Source of the DNA: Neolecta irregularis DAH-3
Taxonomy: Eukaryota
Length of the DNA: 49,144 nucleotides
Direction: 5' to 3'
Assembly: GCA_001929475.1 (NCBI GenBank)
Contig: LXFE01000904.1
Coordinates: 1-49,144, forward strand
A program made the position numbers and the translations under genes. Positions 23,899 to 48,905 of this stretch are shown one piece after another; the first letter of the stretch is position 1, and each line of letters starts with the position of its first letter. A model generated the notes under the pieces. It worked only from the letters and a program-made list of their open reading frames with translations. It ran no database searches and had not been told where the DNA came from.

Positions 23899-26293
23899 CT
23901 AGTCCAAAGCAACTGGTTTCTGTCCCCATCTAGTTTTGAAAACTACGAGTGGTTTTCCTTGTTGTTCCTTTTCATGTTGTTCTCTCCATTCTCGGCCTTT
24001 TTGAGCGAGAGCTCTAAGTTCCTGGATAAAGCGATCTTGGATCTCGTTGGGAGTTTCATCTTTTTCGGAAATGGTGTAGGATTCTAGACGACGTTGGAGC
24101 ATGGCGATATATTCGTTCATGGGATGTTTCATTTCAGAGTATTGAACTTCGACTTGCCAGTCGTCTTTTGAAGTCGGCATTGGACTGCCCTCTACGAGGG
24201 TTTCGTTAACAAAGGAATCTGTTTCGACGACGAGACCAAATACTTTATCGCAAGTTGAAAGATGGTCCTTGTCGATTTCGGGGGAAACGTCGCGTATCGT
24301 GACATGCTTTGCACCATTTGATTTCTCAGGTTCTGTTGGTTTACTGGGTTCCTTAGACTTGGAATCTTCATCATCATGGCCAGTGAGTTCGAGTTCATGC
24401 AGTTTTTCTTCAATCTTTTCAACGGCTTCGGGTTTAACGATGCCCTGAGCCGATTCAAGGACTGCTCTTACTGCGCCGGCTTGATGCTCGTTGATTCGTG
24501 TTTCAGACATGGCTTCGACGATAACATACATCCGGTTCCTCAATCCGGGGTCTGTGTCAAACATCATTCTCATAGACTTGTAGCGTTAGCTTTGTGCGGG
24601 TCACCTGCAACATACTTGGTTTGGAAACCGTTTTGTTGCTTTTTGCAAAATGTCCTCTAGGATAGTGATACTGAGTTTGAATTCGCGGTTTCCGATTCCG
24701 TGTTCATGGCTTCCATGAATAGCACAATCCATTTCTTCCAAGCTGATATACTGGAATCCAAAGATACGATTGGTATTGTGAAAGGCAACAAAAATCCCGT
24801 CCATATTTCCTATTCGGACTTGGAGAGAATATTTCAAGAAAGCAGATCGAATAAGATCGTAGTATTCCCGTTCAAATGATTCGTATTCGCCGTAATTGCC
24901 ACGGATTTCGTAGCCGGACCCGTGTTCTTCAGCATTTGCAATATCCATTCGAACAGCGATAACCGCGCGTGTTTTTAAATCAAAGATACCGCTTCCAGGC
25001 AATCTGGGGTCATAGCAATCGAGTTGAGAACGCATGAGTATATCTCCGCATGTCGAAAAGTGGTAAACTTCCCTTTCGTTTCTCTCGGAAGGGGTGAGAG
25101 TATGGGAATTTGTTTTTCGGTATTTTTCAAGGACCGAGGGGGCTACGGTGAGCATTTTTTCCATTGAACGGCCCTAGGATATTATGACCAGACAAAAAGA
25201 CATAAATGTACGAGCCAAGAGAGGACGTTGTTATCGGTATCTAGACTTTTATCTGCATCTATCGAGTAGATGCCGTTGTTGCATCTCAGAAAGATGGAGG
25301 ACGGTGCTCGCTGCGCTCTTGTAAAAGTTTTCAGCATGCCGCCGTATTTACTAGACAACTTGGAGATCGACACGGACCTCCATGAGGAAAGGAGGAAATG
25401 AAAGTGCGAGAGAGTGGCAGTCATGCTCGATGTCGATCCGACAAATGTGCAATTGTGTTGGCGAGCTAACGAATCGAGATTCTATAAAGAAGGAGATTAA
25501 CTACGATAGCGGGGAAAATATACTGTATCACGAGACGAAGTGATATATTCGAACAAGGCGTCATAGTCAAACTCTTTTTTGGGCATGATCTTTTCGATAT
25601 AGGGATCAAAATTGTATACGTTGGAGCGCGGGTCTCGCATGTACGTGACGCCAGGACTGCGAAGTGAATACAGGATTGGAGCAGACATACTTGAACAGGA
25701 CACGGTCAAGACCATGAGCAAGACCTGCAACCTTTTTTTGTCCAGGCAATATGACTTCTGCACAAGATCAGCTCGAGATCAACAGCAATGCAACCTTTTA
25801 TATGGATATTCTCCGGTTTGAGCGAGAGCGTCTGTACTGTAACAGACCCGTCGATTGTGACATTGAGCGGTTCAGGTGCGGTGGTGTAGCCGGAGCGAGG
25901 AAGAAATTGTATCTTAAAGTTTCCATCTAAGGGCTTTCGTAGACGCCATTTCAGCACACGGGCAGAGAGCGTCTCGTCTGTAGACCGCAAAAATTCTTTG
26001 CTGGTAGTAGCCTTCATTTTGGAGGTTTGTTTTGCAGTGTCAAACACTGGAGCGGGGTTGCTATTATAGTTGCTACCGTCACCCTGGTCCATCTGCTTTT
26101 GGTGGTTTGCTTTCAGGATCGCCGTCGCTGCCTGGGTCGCCATACTTCCTATCTTCGATGTCGCAATACAGCCCTTTGCTTTTTCCTTCAGGCTCAGAAT
26201 CCTGTCCTTGCAGCCCACCATCTGGCTCTTTGCCCTGCAGTATTTCTGCTGGCGGATTGCCGCGACTGACTGGCGGCAGTGCATAAACTGCAT
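23899..26293 (-). CDS. PET127: Mitochondrial RNA 5'-3' exonuclease Pet127, multi-exon (start codon uncertain)
   Basis: LAHGLDRVLFNPGV, DPRSNVYNFDP, GSTSSMT, MRSQLDCYDPRLPGSGIFDLKTRAV, FLKYSLQVRIGNMDGIFVAFHN. Confidence 0.95.
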
Positions 26294-26600
26294 GAGAACA
26301 ACGAAAAAAAAAGCGAATAGAGGTGCGATTAGCGGCAGTCCTGAAATGGTCACGTGAGCGTCATGTGCAGGGATGCGTCAGTGGCGCACGCGCCGTCTCC
26401 CGCCTAACAAACAACGCTAGAACTGCGACCGCGGTTGTCCCCTGAACATGGGCCTCGTCAAAAGGCGGGCCCTGCCCTGGAAAGCGCATATACTCCACCG
26501 CATATACTCGACTGCATAAAACTCTCGCCTTTCCCAGTTTTCGTCTCACCACCATCCTCATCCTGCCATCCCGGTTCTACCGCCTTTAGTCTCCTCTGCT

Positions 26601-27974
26601 ATGGACGGCTGTCTGCTTTTTGCTCCGCCCGCAGACTCGGGCCTGCTCAAGCTGTCAAAGCTTACCGCCAAGTTCAAGCGCCGGTACATTGGTGGGCACA
26701 GGCAGAAAAAGCCGGCATGCTGATGCTGCAGTCATTGCATCCGCGGCAGACGGTTACGTGCTGTCCGTGTACAAAACCAGACCCAGGGGCGGTAAGCCAG
26801 ATCCCATCCATATATTCAGCATGCTTCGGTTTGCCGCTGCGTACATCACCGACGACAAGCCCCCGACGCTGATAGTTGCGGGCCGAGACTGTCCGCCTGC
26901 CGCGACGCCTACCGCCAGCTCCAACCCAACCAATGTCCTGCGCCTCGCCAGATCGTCGCGGCTGCCCTCCAGCAACAGCAGCGCCCCCGTGCTCATGTTT
27001 AGAAACGACCCCGATCTGCCCAACCAGCTCGACTCGTGGCAGCGCTTCATCACAAACGTCCTTCGGGTACGCCCATGCAAGTATCACGGCCTTACCGTGT
27101 CTAGTTTGAACTGACTCCTTCCCCGGCGGCCGCTGTGCCAATAGTAGCGCCTCCTGTGCAGCCCCAGGCCGGCGCCGTCGATGTCGCGCTCTCCCGCCTC
27201 GGGCCTTCCGTCGCGCATCTGTCAATGTCGTCGTCGTCGCCGTCCACCTACTCGTCGTTTGATGGCCACACCATCCGCCCGGTGCGCAGCAACCGCGGAT
27301 GGGACGCGCAGAGCGCATCGACCACGGCCAGCTCGCACCTGTGCGCGCTTTCAGCCGCAGAGGATGCCGGGCTCGACTCGCGGGCCGTGTCGCCGGTCGC
27401 CGCAGACAGAGCAGATCAAAGCCACCTGTCGATTCTCGACCGCGCCCTCCGCCAGCGCCACGGCCAGCTGCCAGGTGCATCGACCATCAGCGGCGTGCTG
27501 GACAGGCACGCATCGATGCCGCCAGACAGTTTTGCCGCCCAGCAGCGCTACCGCCCGTTCCCCCGCCGCAACACCTCCGCCTCAACTACAGTCTCCTCCA
27601 TCCACGGCAAACGCGAACCAGGCCTGCCAAAAGCAGCGGCAACCACCACCACCAGAGAGATCGCCGGCCACAAGAGTCCTGCTCCTCCGTCTCCGGCAGA
27701 AATTCGCGACATCCGGCGGAGCAGCATCATTAGTTTCATTAATCCCACAACCGTCGGAGGTACGGACAGTAACAGAAACAGCCTTAACGATTCAAGGCCA
27801 TCGACGTCGTCAAACGATACAGAAAATCTTTTGCTAGCTCTCAAAAACCGTTATTTATTCTCTGAGCGAGACCCAGAAGATTCCATCTCCATACGAAGAC
27901 GCAGCGTTCAATATGCCCCCGTCGGCAAACGGTTCAGTATCTCTAGCCTTGCAAGTATCGAAGGCAAATGCTGA
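26601..27974 (+). CDS. Uncharacterised protein with PH-like N-terminal domain and Ser/Pro-rich tail, 3 exons
   Basis: ATG 26601 plus two short GT-AG introns give MDGCLL...KFKRRYIVI...LSVYK...LMFR...LDSWQRFI, a PH-fold pattern; GC-rich. Confidence 0.6.
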
Positions 27975-28233
27975 GCAGTTGGAGCCTTTCTTTTTGTAAT
28001 GTCAAGTATTCTTTGCGCGCATTGTTAGTTATCTTCATCTTTTAGTAGGTTTCTTGGGAAGGTTATTCTGTCTTTTGTTCCTCTTTCTTTGGCTTTCAAG
28101 GAGTTGGGGCACATTTCTACTGTAATAAGTAGTCGAGATACTGAATCACCACATGTATTGCATTTATATTATTGCCCGATCGTGAATTCTTTCTCCATGT
28201 TGTATCTATTGCTCCTCCCTATGTATTGCACAT

Positions 28234-45354: not shown

Positions 45355-48300
45355 ATGGCCTCATCTCAAACGAAGAACATCGTAGTTCTGCCTGGCGATG
45401 GGTATTCTTGTCGTTAAATAGAGAAATTAAACTCAATATGCTAGTGTCGGTCCTGAAGTCATTGCTGAAGCACTCAAAGTTCTCAAAACTATTGAGCGAG
45501 TTCGACCAAACGTTTCCTTTAATGTCAATACTTTTATGATCGGAGGCGAAGCGATTGTATATGTTGTTCATACCATTGGCTCACTGGCGATAGGATGCGA
45601 CTGGATCGCCGCTACCTGATGATACTTTGAAAGCTGCCAAAGCTGCAGATGCAATTCTTCTCGGTGCAGTTGGCGGTCCAAAATGGGGGACCGGACCAAT
45701 CAGACCCGAACAAGGCCTTCTCAGGATTCGCAAAGAATTGGATGTATTTTCAAACATCAGACCATGCAATTTTGCCAGTGAAAGTTTGTTGGACTTTAGC
45801 CCTCTAAGGGAAGAAGTCGCCAAGGGCACAGACTTTACTGTCGTTCGAGAACTCGTTGGCGGTATTTATTTTGGAGAAAAGATTGAAGATGATGGATCGG
45901 GACATGGTATTATCTTCTACATAACATTACACTGAAGTGGTAGCCCGTGATATGATGCCATATAGCAAAGCAGAGATTGAGCGAATCACCCGAGTCGCAG
46001 CATTCCTTGCGATGAAGCAAAATCCACCTGCACGAATCCATTCTCTTGATAAAGGTATGATATCAGCTAACCACATTAAAATAATCTTTGTACAGCAAAT
46101 GTACTTGCCACCTCTCGATTGTGGAGAAAGACGGTCACCCAAGTCTTGTCAAAAGAATTTCCTCAAGTTAAGTTTGATCACCTCTTGATCGATAGCGCAG
46201 CTATGTTGGTCATCAAGAATCCCCGTGCATTGAACGGAATCATTCTCACTGAGAACATGTTTGGGGATATCATCAGTGACGAGGCCAGCGTCATTCCAGG
46301 CTCATTGGGACTTTTACCATCAGCTTCCTTGTCTGGAATCCCAGACGGAAAGAGTCGAACTAACGGAATTTACGAGCCTATTCATGGAAGCGCGCCTGAT
46401 ATCGCAGGAAAAGGAATCGTTAATCCTGTGGCTGCTATTTTGTCAGTTGCCATGATGTTACGATATTCTCTTGGACTTGCAAATGAGGCTCAAGCTATCG
46501 AAGATGCTGTTCGTAAAACCATCGATTCTCAAGAACTCTGCGGAGAAGGCATTCGCACAAAAGATATTGGTGGACAGTCGTCGACAAGTGAAGTCGGAAA
46601 TACAATCTGTACTGTCCTCGAAACATATCTTGAAGGTCTCAACTCGGCTGAGCGAGTTGACATAAAAGTACCCAGGGAGTTGACATCATCTCGACCGGCT
46701 GGGCGAAGACCGATGACTATCACAGAAAAGATTATAGCCCATGCTGCGATCAATCTCCCGCCGCCAGGAAATGTCAAACCGGGTGATATGGTCTGTGTGC
46801 ATGTTGACTGGACGTTGGCCTCTGAACTCACTTGGAAGGGGATGGAAAAGACTTACGACCAAATGAAACGGCCAAAGATCCACAGAAATGACAGATTTTG
46901 GCTTGCAATCGATCATACTGTTGATCCACGAACCTATCATCTTCCGAAAACTAAGAGTCTTGTTGAAGCTTCACTGAGCTTTTCCAAAGAAGCGAAACTA
47001 GTAGACTATCTTAGGCCGAATACCTCTATCCTTCACACGGAATTTTACCGCCAAAGAGCGCAACCTGGCCAAGTTATCATTGGAGCCGATTCGCATTCTT
47101 GCTCTGCTGGAGGTCTCGGAGCCTTTGCTGTAGGTCTCGGAGCAGCTGATGTGGTTATGCCTCTCGTCACTGGAGAAACTTGGTTTAGCGTCCCAGAGAC
47201 TTGCGAAATCAAGTTTATTGGAGAACCTCCTTTTGGAATTGGTGGTAAAGATACCATTCTCTACGTCCTTGGAGAGCTAAAACGAAACACTGTTGCTTTT
47301 GAACGGTCGGTAGAGTTTACTGGACCCGGATTAAAACATTTATCTTGCGATGCTCGATTTGCCATTGCGAATATGTCGACTGAATTCGGAGGTATCGCTG
47401 GTGTCGTGGAAGCAGATGAAATTACCGCAGCTTACATTTCTAAACGAACGAATCTAGCACACAAAAACAACGCGATATATTTTAGAGCAGATCCTGATGC
47501 CGAATACGCTGTGTCTTACACTATCGATCTCTCGAATGTTGAGAGTTTGGTCGCAGTCTATCCTAGCCCCGACAATGTTGTTTCCGTCGATGAAGCAGCT
47601 GATACTCCTCTTGATGGCTGCTTTATCGGAGCTTGTACAACTGCCGAAGAAGATCTAATTCTTGGAGCATTAGTTCTTGAAGCTGGGCTAAAGAATGGAA
47701 TGGTACCCATCTCCACGGGCCAACGCAGAGTAACCCCGGGGTCTCTCCCTATCCTTGCGAAGCTTCGAAAACTAGGGCTTTTGGCGGTCTATGAACGGGC
47801 TGGATTTACAGTTGGTGCTCCTGGATGTAGTTACTGCCTTGGTATCGCGGCTGATATTGCCGGTGAAGGAGAGGTTTGGCTTTCCTCTCAAAATCGAAAT
47901 TTCAAGAATCGAATGGGTAAAGGAAGTATTGGAAATCTTGCTTCTGCCGCGACCGTTGCAGCTTCTTCGTTCAATATGAAAATTGCCAATCCGCGGGTCT
48001 TGTTGGACTCTATCGACCGGGCACGATACTCTAGAATTCGCGAGGCTTGGTCTGAGGGAAATTTGCCCAAGATCACTATTTCCGAACCGATGCCTACACC
48101 TGTCGAGAATGCAAAACTGGAGGACGTTGTCGACAGTATTCAAAAGGTTTCCGATGGAGAGACCAAGCAGAAGAGGGTTATCAGTGGAAAGGTGCAACGA
48201 TTTGAAGAAAATGTAGATACCGATGCTATTATTCCTGCGCCTTTTATGCCTGGCAAGGATGGTATGTCATTTGATGAATTTCAGGATTCAAGTTCTAGAT

Positions 48301-48905
48301 CAGGATCTGGGGACACATTGTTTTGAATATTACAGACCAGAGTTTCGCCAGCGGGTCAAGGATGGTGCAACTATTGTGTACGTCTTGTACAATGTTAGTA
48401 TTGACTAGAAAGCGTCGCTGGTAATGGATTTGGATCCGGATCCTCACGGGAAGAGGCTCCGCGAGCGCTCATGGGAATTGGAGTGCAGTGTGTCATCGCA
48501 CCAGGTTATGCATTCATTTACGGACGAAATCAACTCAATATGGGACTTCTTGGGATTATTATCAAGGACGAGGAGTTTTATGAACTTTCCAAGGAAGGCG
48601 CTGTTGTCAGCATCGATCAAGATAATCTTGTCGTTACCGTTCAAGGCTTCGACAAAAAGTTTACCTTCAAGTTAACGGACTTTGAGCAAAAGCTGATTTC
48701 TGTAAGCATTTGGTCATTCTCCCCATTTTTGATAATTTCTCAGGGCGGTGGAGTTACGGCACTCTATGACAAATTCGAGAACCAGTTGTTTAGAAGTCTC
48801 TTGAGACCTGATGATAGTCAAATACAAGGCGGCTGTGGAAATGAAGTTGAGACAAGCAAAAGTGGTGATGGGTGTGGAGATACAAAACAAACGCTCGCTT
48901 GGTAA
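45355..48905 (+). CDS. LEU2: Fusion of 3-isopropylmalate dehydrogenase (Leu2/LeuB) with aconitase-family Fe-S large domain and swivel domain (LeuC/LeuD-like), 8 exons
   Basis: IPMDH motifs [49 protein letters not shown]; then in the same exon [51 protein letters not shown]. Confidence 0.92.

Follow-up and report, generated by a model that had tools for sequence, protein, structure and literature searches.

Contig LXFE01000904.1 of Neolecta irregularis DAH-3 (assembly GCA_001929475.1), which at its full length of 49,144 bp is the window analyzed here, carries a gene (45355..48905, forward strand) whose single predicted product joins a complete isopropylmalate dehydrogenase (IPMDH, the LEU2 enzyme of fungi) to an aconitase-family module that resembles LeuC and LeuD and is not of the Leu1 type. 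A preliminary description of this DNA had proposed such a polypeptide, and the gene model and Pfam domains given below bear it out. Taken as a whole, the protein is best explained as a cytosolic bifunctional alkylmalate isomerase/IPMDH for leucine synthesis, composed of a LEU2 orthologue and an iron-sulfur (Fe-S) module, although we give this reading only about an even chance of being correct. The gene is a further member of a group of fused proteins that is known to the databases and uncharacterized, with its special trait being a dehydrogenase half that resembles those of the Dikarya.

Gene structure and the fusion junction

The gene model was built with the database protein P0001 (1094 aa) as a guide, and was extended with GT-AG introns. 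It consists of eight exons (45355-45401, 45445-45556, 45594-45906, 45938-46054, 46096-48261, 48299-48377, 48413-48701 and 48744-48905) and seven GT-AG introns. The spliced coding sequence of 3285 nt, running from the ATG at 45355 to the stop codon at 48903-48905, encodes 1094 aa plus stop, and its translation is identical to P0001, letter for letter. The introns, all of which lie within 45402-48743, are very short (31, 35, 37, 37, 41, 42 and 43 nt), and every one of them starts with GTA.

Three Pfam matches, each exceeding its gathering score, cover the protein: Iso_dh (residues 8-367, 437.5 bits), Aconitase (462-822, 240.6 bits) and Aconitase_C (898-997, 55.1 bits). On the forward strand, the Iso_dh domain occupies 45376..46607 and is split by introns 1-4. 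It is followed by a linker of 28 aa (residues 375-402; 46629..46712, within exon 5) and by a LeuC/HacA-like Fe-S domain, corresponding to the large domain of aconitase (residues 403-830; 46713..47996), in which the cluster ligands are C710 (47634-47636), C774 (47826-47828) and C777 (47835-47837). A LeuD-like swivel domain (residues 894-1049; 48186..48767), split by introns 5-7, holds the catalytic GSGSSRE sequence. The protein ends in a disordered, Cys-containing tail (48816..48905, with the end ...KQTLAW and then the stop), which is a candidate signal for targeting by the cytosolic iron-sulfur protein assembly (CIA) machinery. The open reading frame (ORF) at 46119-48326 (forward strand, 735 aa), from which the fusion was originally recognized, is open as described, and the quoted linker and motifs, including DTDAIIP, are present in it.

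The junction between the dehydrogenase and aconitase parts lies inside exon 5 (46096-48261), which is free of stop codons, introns and Ns. There are 21 GT..AG pairs around the linker (e.g., 46668-46708), but these are chance pairs and give no support for splicing there. The two halves of the gene are alike in composition, with a GC content of 0.460 versus 0.466, a GC content at third codon positions (GC3) of 0.382 versus 0.395, and a codon-frequency correlation of r = 0.82. An AlphaFold2 model of the whole protein, based on an alignment of 38 sequences and used for order and disorder only, has a mean predicted local distance difference test score (pLDDT) of 85 and a predicted TM-score of 0.84. 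In this model the start of the linker (the LEGLN part) prolongs the last helix of the IPMDH (H360-383), and the block 381-390 has a pLDDT of 65. A search for RNA runs containing 46300-47100 returned none. The fusion is almost certainly a genuine nuclear fungal gene that would be translated as a single chain.

The dehydrogenase half

The dehydrogenase half has the properties of a complete LEU2 enzyme. Among the NCBIfam models it scores 485.9 bits against TIGR00169 (leuB), well above the equivalog cut-off of 353.2, with profile positions 1-345 of 349 aligned; the homoisocitrate, tartrate and isocitrate dehydrogenase models give far lower scores, under their respective cut-offs. The Iso_dh match likewise extends over the full Pfam profile (1-348), and the best matches in the PDB are all IPMDHs, with 3u1h at the top (364 bits). 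In E. coli LeuB, substrate and metal binding and catalysis involve R99, R109, R138, Y145, K195, D227, D251 and D255 (the residue types agree with the E. coli sequence); all eight are identical in the Neolecta protein. The RPEQGLL stretch is also conserved, and the NAD loop, HGSAPDIAG, is the same as in Aspergillus Leu2A.

In a search for standalone proteins (no more than 600 aa), the best 120 matches to this half are all IPMDHs of 363-580 aa, with 61-68% identity to it, and the named ones all come from Dikarya, i.e., Ascomycota (many labeled Leu2A) and one basidiomycete, Tilletiaria. Over its N-terminal 370 residues, the protein shares 64-69% identity with the Leu2A-type proteins of Ascomycota. 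By BLASTP, the half is 62-69% identical to standalone Dikarya LEU2, and only 51-65% identical to the corresponding domain of other fused proteins, so that the former (up to 69%) are its nearer relatives when compared with the fusions of early-diverging fungi. With Dikarya LEU2/Leu2A (EC 1.1.1.85) it shares the passing of the equivalog cut-off, the active-site positions and the tree group; the difference is that the Dikarya enzyme stands alone at ∼365 aa, whereas the Neolecta LEU2 runs in frame into an Fe-S module of 690 aa. The half thus very probably acts as LEU2, an NAD-dependent 3-isopropylmalate dehydrogenase.

The isomerase-like module

By its sequence, the module belongs to a distinct aconitase subfamily and is not an orthologue of Leu1, in agreement with the earlier assignment to a non-Leu1 aconitase clade. 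It does not reach TIGR00170, the model for bacterial and Leu1-type leuC, scoring 140.1 bits against a cut-off of 560.25. The models closest to its Fe-S part are those of archaeal-type LeuC/HacA, which align over their full profile length, and the swivel part, which contains GSGSSREEA, passes the cut-off of TIGR02087 (LEUD_arch; 119.6 bits versus 108.95). The large-subunit matches in the PDB are 4nqy, 4kp1 and 4kp2 (196-200 bits), and the small-subunit matches are 2pkp (homoaconitase, 97 bits) and 3vba (isopropylmalate/citramalate isomerase, 84 bits).

The active-site elements of the superfamily are all recognizable. C710, C774 and C777 align with C347, C407 and C410 of E. coli LeuC. The DH, DSH, E, C, CxxC and NRNFxxR motifs have aligned counterparts both in this enzyme and in prokaryotic proteins of the LeuC/HacA type; GSSRE is present as well. 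In the 38 aligned fused proteins, C774, C777, D469-H470, D528-S529-H530, E626, R797, R802 and S955-S956-R957 are invariant or nearly so, and C710 is conserved in at least 90%. The three Fe-S cysteines, the DSH motif and the swivel domain with DTDAIIP and GSGSSRE that were pointed out in the preliminary description are therefore in place, with the cysteines in the positions of those of LeuC. In all likelihood, the module is an active [4Fe-4S] hydro-lyase.

Other positions are peculiar to the family. E. coli LeuC carries IDRHLVHEVTSPQAF, and at the aligned place the Neolecta module has a different 11-residue stretch; the replacement of this part of Leu1, which had also been claimed, is evident in the alignment. 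The family signature is DWT[LI]ASELTW where Leu1 has the HEVTSPQAF region, together with NRNFKNRMG, and a family-specific 10-residue stretch takes the place of SCTNGRxxDL.

Two sets of characterized enzymes serve for comparison. Leu1 and bacterial LeuC plus LeuD belong to the same superfamily and share the three Cys ligands; Leu1 is also arranged as a large domain followed by a swivel domain on one chain, and like the fusion it has a C-terminal tail with an aromatic last residue. They differ in that the module fails TIGR00170 and has the N-terminal IDRHLVHEVTSPQAF motif replaced. The closest solved structures are those of Methanocaldococcus jannaschii isopropylmalate/citramalate isomerase (4kp1/4nqy plus 3vba) and homoaconitase (4kp2 plus 2pkp), which share the fold and the catalytic motifs; these enzymes consist of two separate subunits and lack the W-ending tail, whereas the Neolecta protein is a fusion with the tail.

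Two other identities were considered and rejected. Against homoaconitase (Lys4) stand a TIGR00139 score of 212.5 bits versus 529.9 and a small-subunit loop without Arg, and against aconitase proper stand scores far under the cut-offs of the mitochondrial and AcnA-type models.

Distribution of the fusion and of the module

The 735-aa ORF was searched against 5.8 billion proteins, and the best 120 matches were listed. The combination of Iso_dh and Aconitase (PF00180 and PF00330) is present in 119 of these 120 (53-71% identity, the Neolecta protein itself being counted), with the only exception being a 777-aa model. The carriers among the 120 represent at least eight fungal lineages plus Parvularia and Physarum. 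They include Glomeromycota (Ambispora, Paraglomus, Geosiphon, Gigaspora, Rhizophagus, Diversispora and others), Endogonales (Jimgerdemannia) as well as Calcarisporiella, Mortierellaceae (Linnemannia, Entomortierella, Mortierella spp., Dissophora and Actinomortierella), Kickxellomycotina and other zoopagomycetes (Coemansia, Smittium, Dimargaris and Syncephalis), Entomophthoromycotina, chytrids (Synchytrium, Entophlyctis and Polyrhizophydium), Neocallimastigomycota (Piromyces) and Blastocladiomycota (Allomyces and Blastocladiella). Outside the fungi, the fusion occurs in the nucleariid Parvularia and the slime mold Physarum. Its presence in Ascomycota is patchy, at 53-57% identity (Fusarium, Clonostachys, Pseudogymnoascus, Pestalotiopsis, and some Aspergillus and Penicillium).

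In early-diverging fungi (e.g., Jimgerdemannia, Rhizophagus, Coemansia, Synchytrium and Allomyces), the fused proteins agree with the Neolecta protein in their three-domain architecture, their fusion point and the C-terminal LAW, and they are 59-67% identical to it over their whole length and 61-72% identical in the module. Among 31 aligned fused proteins the linker varies from ∼3 to ∼70 aa but is in frame in all of them, and it is bordered by the conserved C-terminus of the IPMDH and by a conserved RRPMTxxEKI. A linker motif resembling LEGLNxxDR is common to Neolecta, Mucoromycota and many zoopagomycete proteins.

The novelty that the preliminary description implied is thus not sustained, with the fusion being widespread over fungal phyla and present in Parvularia and Physarum. 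Its author had allowed that the novelty would fall if the architecture were both common and characterized. It is common, as the 119 of 120 best relatives attest; as to characterization, a full-text literature search, covering few subscription journals, returned no description of an IPMDH-aconitase fusion or of the module family. In the databases the fused proteins are mostly labeled “3-isopropylmalate dehydrogenase” or “putative aconitate hydratase”.

A search with the module alone shows that it also exists as a standalone protein of 670-720 aa (53-65% identity). Such proteins are found in oomycetes (two paralogues each), Corallochytrium, a colponemid, Umbelopsis, Backusella and two yeasts, and also in Aspergillus (A. 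sydowii, A. versicolor and relatives, plus relatives of A. niger). When 1.84 billion representatives were searched exhaustively with HMMER, 6610 matches were obtained at E ≤ 1e-3 and 502 at E ≤ 1e-30, with a sharp fall in score from family-type proteins (50-70% identity in those of full length) to prokaryotic LeuC/HacA proteins of ∼420 aa (31-37%). No close prokaryotic relative appeared in 185,579 prokaryotic species genomes, where identities were only 27-34%; the query in this case was P0370, the most divergent family-like representative, and not the Neolecta module. A search of the ESM Atlas returned only generic aconitase/LeuCD clusters. The module subfamily is therefore apparently restricted to eukaryotes.

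In a quick module tree (LG+G4 on 66 rows hand-picked from the listed matches, without a mixture model), the eukaryotic proteins form four sub-clades. Neolecta belongs to a “core” sub-clade (support 97) that contains the fused proteins of early-diverging fungi, Parvularia, Physarum, Corallochytrium and oomycete paralogue A. The fused proteins of Ascomycota form another sub-clade, and they deviate in the dehydrogenase as well. In P0084 (Fusarium oxysporum) and P0077 (Pseudogymnoascus), HGSAPDIAG is replaced, for example by NLKPRD, and GAVGGPKW has become a CACGDSKY-like sequence; these paralogues also sit on a long branch (1.6). The degenerate NAD loop and the different module sub-clade indicate that the Ascomycota fused paralogues are not equivalent to the Neolecta gene, and they are probably a neofunctionalized accessory enzyme.

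The standalone modules of oomycetes fall into two deep paralogues, one in the core clade and one basal (P0131/P0134/P0146/P0149 versus P0174/P0196/P0206/P0199). They are named inconsistently, as aconitate hydratase or 3-isopropylmalate dehydratase, and one that lacks a dehydrogenase domain is nevertheless called “3-isopropylmalate dehydrogenase”.

Proposed history of the fusion

A quick IPMDH tree of 49 rows comprised 35 fused proteins and 13 standalone enzymes, all hand-picked from the listed matches to span taxa, together with E. coli LeuB. For a careful maximum-likelihood tree, 18 of these were dropped (six Ascomycota fused paralogues, eight other fused proteins that were mostly long-branched or redundant, and four standalone enzymes), which left 31 rows. 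In the careful tree, the Neolecta half groups with Pezizomycotina LEU2 (99/94), then with Saitoella (81/62) and then with Tilletiaria (83/85). When the tree is rooted with E. coli LeuB, this clade of Dikarya plus Neolecta is nested among the fused proteins. The fused proteins branch in an order broadly like that of the fungal species, and Physarum and Parvularia are basal.

From this branching pattern, the fusion appears to be old (Amoebozoa plus Holomycota), and the standalone LEU2 of Dikarya would descend from it through loss of the module. The simplest reading for Neolecta is that its lineage lies at or inside the base of the Dikarya LEU2 group and has kept the module. In approximately unbiased (AU) tests, for which both groups were named after the tree had been seen, a single clade of all 21 fused proteins is mildly rejected (p = 0.022). 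Two points tell against this history: monophyly of the nine standalone LEU2 enzymes without the Neolecta half is not rejected (p = 0.076), and the sampling of the IPMDH trees is thin, with no standalone enzymes of Mucorales, Saccharomycotina, plants or oomycetes and with E. coli as the only bacterium.

A bolder proposal, which we put forward tentatively and consider rather doubtful, is that LEU2 is a fission product of an ancestral amorphean bifunctional enzyme. The module would then be the isopropylmalate isomerase with which eukaryotes began, and a bacterial-type LEU1 would later have taken its place in Dikarya and Mucorales; it would be, alternatively, a new cytosolic alkylmalate isomerase activity extending from slime molds to fungi.

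The C-terminal tail and probable cellular location

Residues 1066-1094 are disordered in the AlphaFold2 model (pLDDT ∼30). In the family, 90 of the 93 members of fused size and 75 of the 79 of standalone size (165/172) have W as their final residue, and LAW is the commonest terminal tripeptide. Cytosolic Fe-S clients, including fungal Leu1, are reported to carry a C-terminal [LIM]-[DES]-[WF] at the end of a variable extension (bioRxiv 10.1101/2023.05.19.541488). The Neolecta L-A-W fits this motif at positions -3 and -1, with the -2 position being Ala rather than D, E or S. At the other end of the protein, the dehydrogenase fold starts with its first strand after only seven residues, too few to accommodate a presequence. 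The fusion protein is thus probably cytosolic, with its cluster delivered by the CIA machinery through the ...LAW tail.

The tail ahead of the terminal Trp is rich in Cys: at least two Cys occur in the last 32 aa in 116 of 183 W-ending members, compared with a mean Cys content of 1.7%. The last Cys of the tail is usually 8-11 residues ahead of the terminal W.

Proposed function of the fused protein

The catalytic residues of both halves are all intact, so that a bifunctional isomerase-dehydrogenase is the natural reading, and to this extent the function suggested in the preliminary description holds. In the mechanism that we propose, the module would isomerize a 2-alkylmalate to the 3-alkylmalate, and the attached dehydrogenase would then oxidatively decarboxylate the product. 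In the case of leucine, 2-isopropylmalate would be converted to 3-isopropylmalate and this to 2-oxoisocaproate, as consecutive steps on one chain. IPMDHs are obligate homodimers, and the whole fusion protein is accordingly expected to dimerize; it would do so through the dehydrogenase domain, and substrate might be channeled between the halves. Whether isopropylmalate is indeed what the module acts on seems to us evenly balanced.

Several observations weigh against a role of the module in leucine synthesis. No curated large-subunit cut-off in NCBIfam is reached, and the archaeal-type models are among those missed (PRK00402, 314.6 versus 385; TIGR01343, 282.9 versus 385.7; TIGR02086, 278.2 versus 410.15). 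Next to the first cluster cysteine the module has CTTAE, compared with CTNGR or CTNSR in E. coli LeuC and the prokaryotic rows. The small-subunit loop is FMPG, which matches neither YLRT of homoaconitase (2pkp) nor YLVY of the isopropylmalate/citramalate isomerase (3vba). This loop, which follows DTDxIxP, we take from the M. jannaschii literature to be what sets substrate specificity, and the Arg of YLRT presumably recognizes the carboxylate in homoaconitase; on the favorable side, the lack of an Arg at this position in Neolecta argues against a substrate with a carboxylate side chain.

The main obstacle comes from reports on other fungi. Mortierella alpina is reported to have a LEU1 homologue (E = 0 to yeast LEU1) that is 3.5-fold repressed by branched-chain amino acids (PMC8880518, Table 1), and a functional Leu1-type gene is reported for Mucorales (PMC2904702). 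The fusion occurs in other Mortierellaceae, so that isopropylmalate isomerization in that family probably does not depend on the module alone, although the fusion is known from these other members and LEU1 from M. alpina. M. alpina also has a Leu2 homologue, “LeuB1” (E = 1.4e-112), for which PMC8880518 makes no mention of a fusion; LeuB1 is probably a fused gene. In one of two readings, the module is an older isomerase that is redundant with LEU1 and is being displaced, which fits with the fact that, among the matches listed, no named protein of Dikarya or Mucorales has the core module.

According to the same report, leuB1 of M. alpina is located in a partly duplicated ilvF2-ilvE2-leuB1 cluster, and the isopropylmalate synthase of this fungus is only distantly similar to yeast Leu4 (E = 8e-23; PMC8880518). 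These data echo the two-origins result of PMC2904702, in that early-diverging fungi and Dikarya make leucine differently at several points, not just at one.

The strongest alternative to leucine synthesis, which we regard as possible but somewhat unlikely, accepts the fusion as real and assigns isopropylmalate isomerization to the canonical LEU1. The module would instead isomerize another 2-alkylmalate (citramalate, or a longer or aryl-substituted malate) and feed a promiscuous dehydrogenase in a parallel 2-oxoacid elongation, such as a threonine-independent route to 2-oxobutyrate. The LEU1 homologue of M. alpina (PMC8880518), beside the fusion in other Mortierellaceae, speaks for this, as do the FMPG loop where 3vba has YLVY and the family's own signature around the cluster, starting with DWT. 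Related module clades, standalone or fused, occur moreover in Ascomycota that certainly have LEU1, and triads of isopropylmalate synthase-like, aconitase-like and IPMDH-like enzymes in Ascomycota serve to make homotyrosine and AM-toxin building blocks (PMC7778625, PMC8102738). In these systems, HtyC/HtyD (echinocandin homotyrosine) and AMT6/AMT8 (AM-toxin), an IPMDH-like and aconitase-like pair acts on a non-leucine alkylmalate (PMC7778625, PMC8102738), but the pair is encoded by separate genes in biosynthetic clusters, whereas the Neolecta fusion gene lies among housekeeping genes with no synthase or aminotransferase nearby. The dehydrogenase half, a LEU2 orthologue whose hydrophobic-substituent motif is unchanged, also tells against another substrate. 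The same is true of the module itself, since an identity of 61-72% across fungal phyla, Parvularia and Physarum suits a core function, and since no named Dikarya protein among the matches listed has a core-type module, as would be expected if LEU1 had made it redundant.

It is improbable that the module is a non-catalytic or regulatory appendage, for instance one that, in the manner of IRP1, senses Fe-S clusters or iron/oxygen and adjusts the activity of the dehydrogenase. A link between leucine synthesis and iron regulation in Aspergillus (PMC6221358), the Cys-rich tail and an unusual charge change beside the cluster would be in keeping with such a role, but the catalytic motifs of the superfamily are all invariant or nearly so in the aligned fused proteins, and identity is very high over the entire module, not just near the cluster. 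An artefact of assembly or annotation, in which two neighboring genes or the sequences of two organisms were joined in the contig, is highly improbable: the contig end (a 10-N gap and then a 112-base near-copy of the fusion gene) shows that local assembly is not clean, and the dehydrogenase half has its place with Dikarya, whereas the closest modules are those of early-diverging fungi, but the junction has no N, stop or intron, the linker motif and fusion point repeat in independent genomes, GC, GC3, codon use, intron size and intron consensus are equal on both sides of the junction, and a linker that is in frame in 31 of 31 aligned fused proteins rules out a merged-gene artefact.

The rest of the contig

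The window is a whole contig, and its remaining ORFs are ordinary housekeeping genes. Among the neighbors of the fusion gene are those for PGAP1, a GATA factor, APC4, APC10, PAN3, an importin-beta, Pet127 and a DEAH helicase, and further neighbors are Serinc, phosphatidylserine decarboxylase, an RSE1/DDB1/CPSF-A-type beta-propeller protein and a protein kinase. Genes for isopropylmalate synthase or an aminotransferase, or of a type found in clusters, were not found among the ORFs of the contig. The fusion gene was also considered as a secondary-metabolite cluster gene, which was rejected on account of these housekeeping neighbors.

The end of the contig (49023..49144, forward strand) consists of the 10-N scaffold gap followed by 112 bases that repeat 46133-46244, in the interior of exon 5, with two mismatches (111 bases at 99.1% identity by BLASTN). 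The junction is not touched by this repeat. It may come from another copy or allele of the gene that is nearly identical, perhaps a tandem duplicate with its start concealed by the gap, or else be a scaffolding artefact.

A GC-rich island is present at 26001-28000, with a GC content of 0.584 compared with 0.40-0.49 elsewhere, and has overlapping ORFs on both strands. Its longest frame (27105-27971, forward strand) encodes a low-complexity sequence rich in Ser, Thr, Pro and Ala. Neither a Pfam match nor a long tandem repeat was found in the island.

Significance

Leucine synthesis is textbook biochemistry and has been proposed as a target for antifungals; LEU2, for its part, is among the most used genetic markers. 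Most of the fungal lineages outside the Dikarya that were sampled here have their LEU2 orthologue joined to an Fe-S isomerase whose subfamily is uncharacterized. Pathway reconstructions for these fungi that rely on labels reading “3-isopropylmalate dehydrogenase” alone miss a whole enzyme. As a natural fusion of two steps, the protein offers a system for work on substrate channeling.

For Neolecta itself, the analysis mainly serves to correct the earlier picture: the fusion is genuine, yet it is part of a large, catalogued and uncharacterized group and not a unique invention. On a wider scale, the history of LEU1 and LEU2 in fungi may include gene fission and non-orthologous displacement. If the fission reading is true, the Neolecta lineage would be the only Dikarya-affiliated one seen here with the ancestral fused state.

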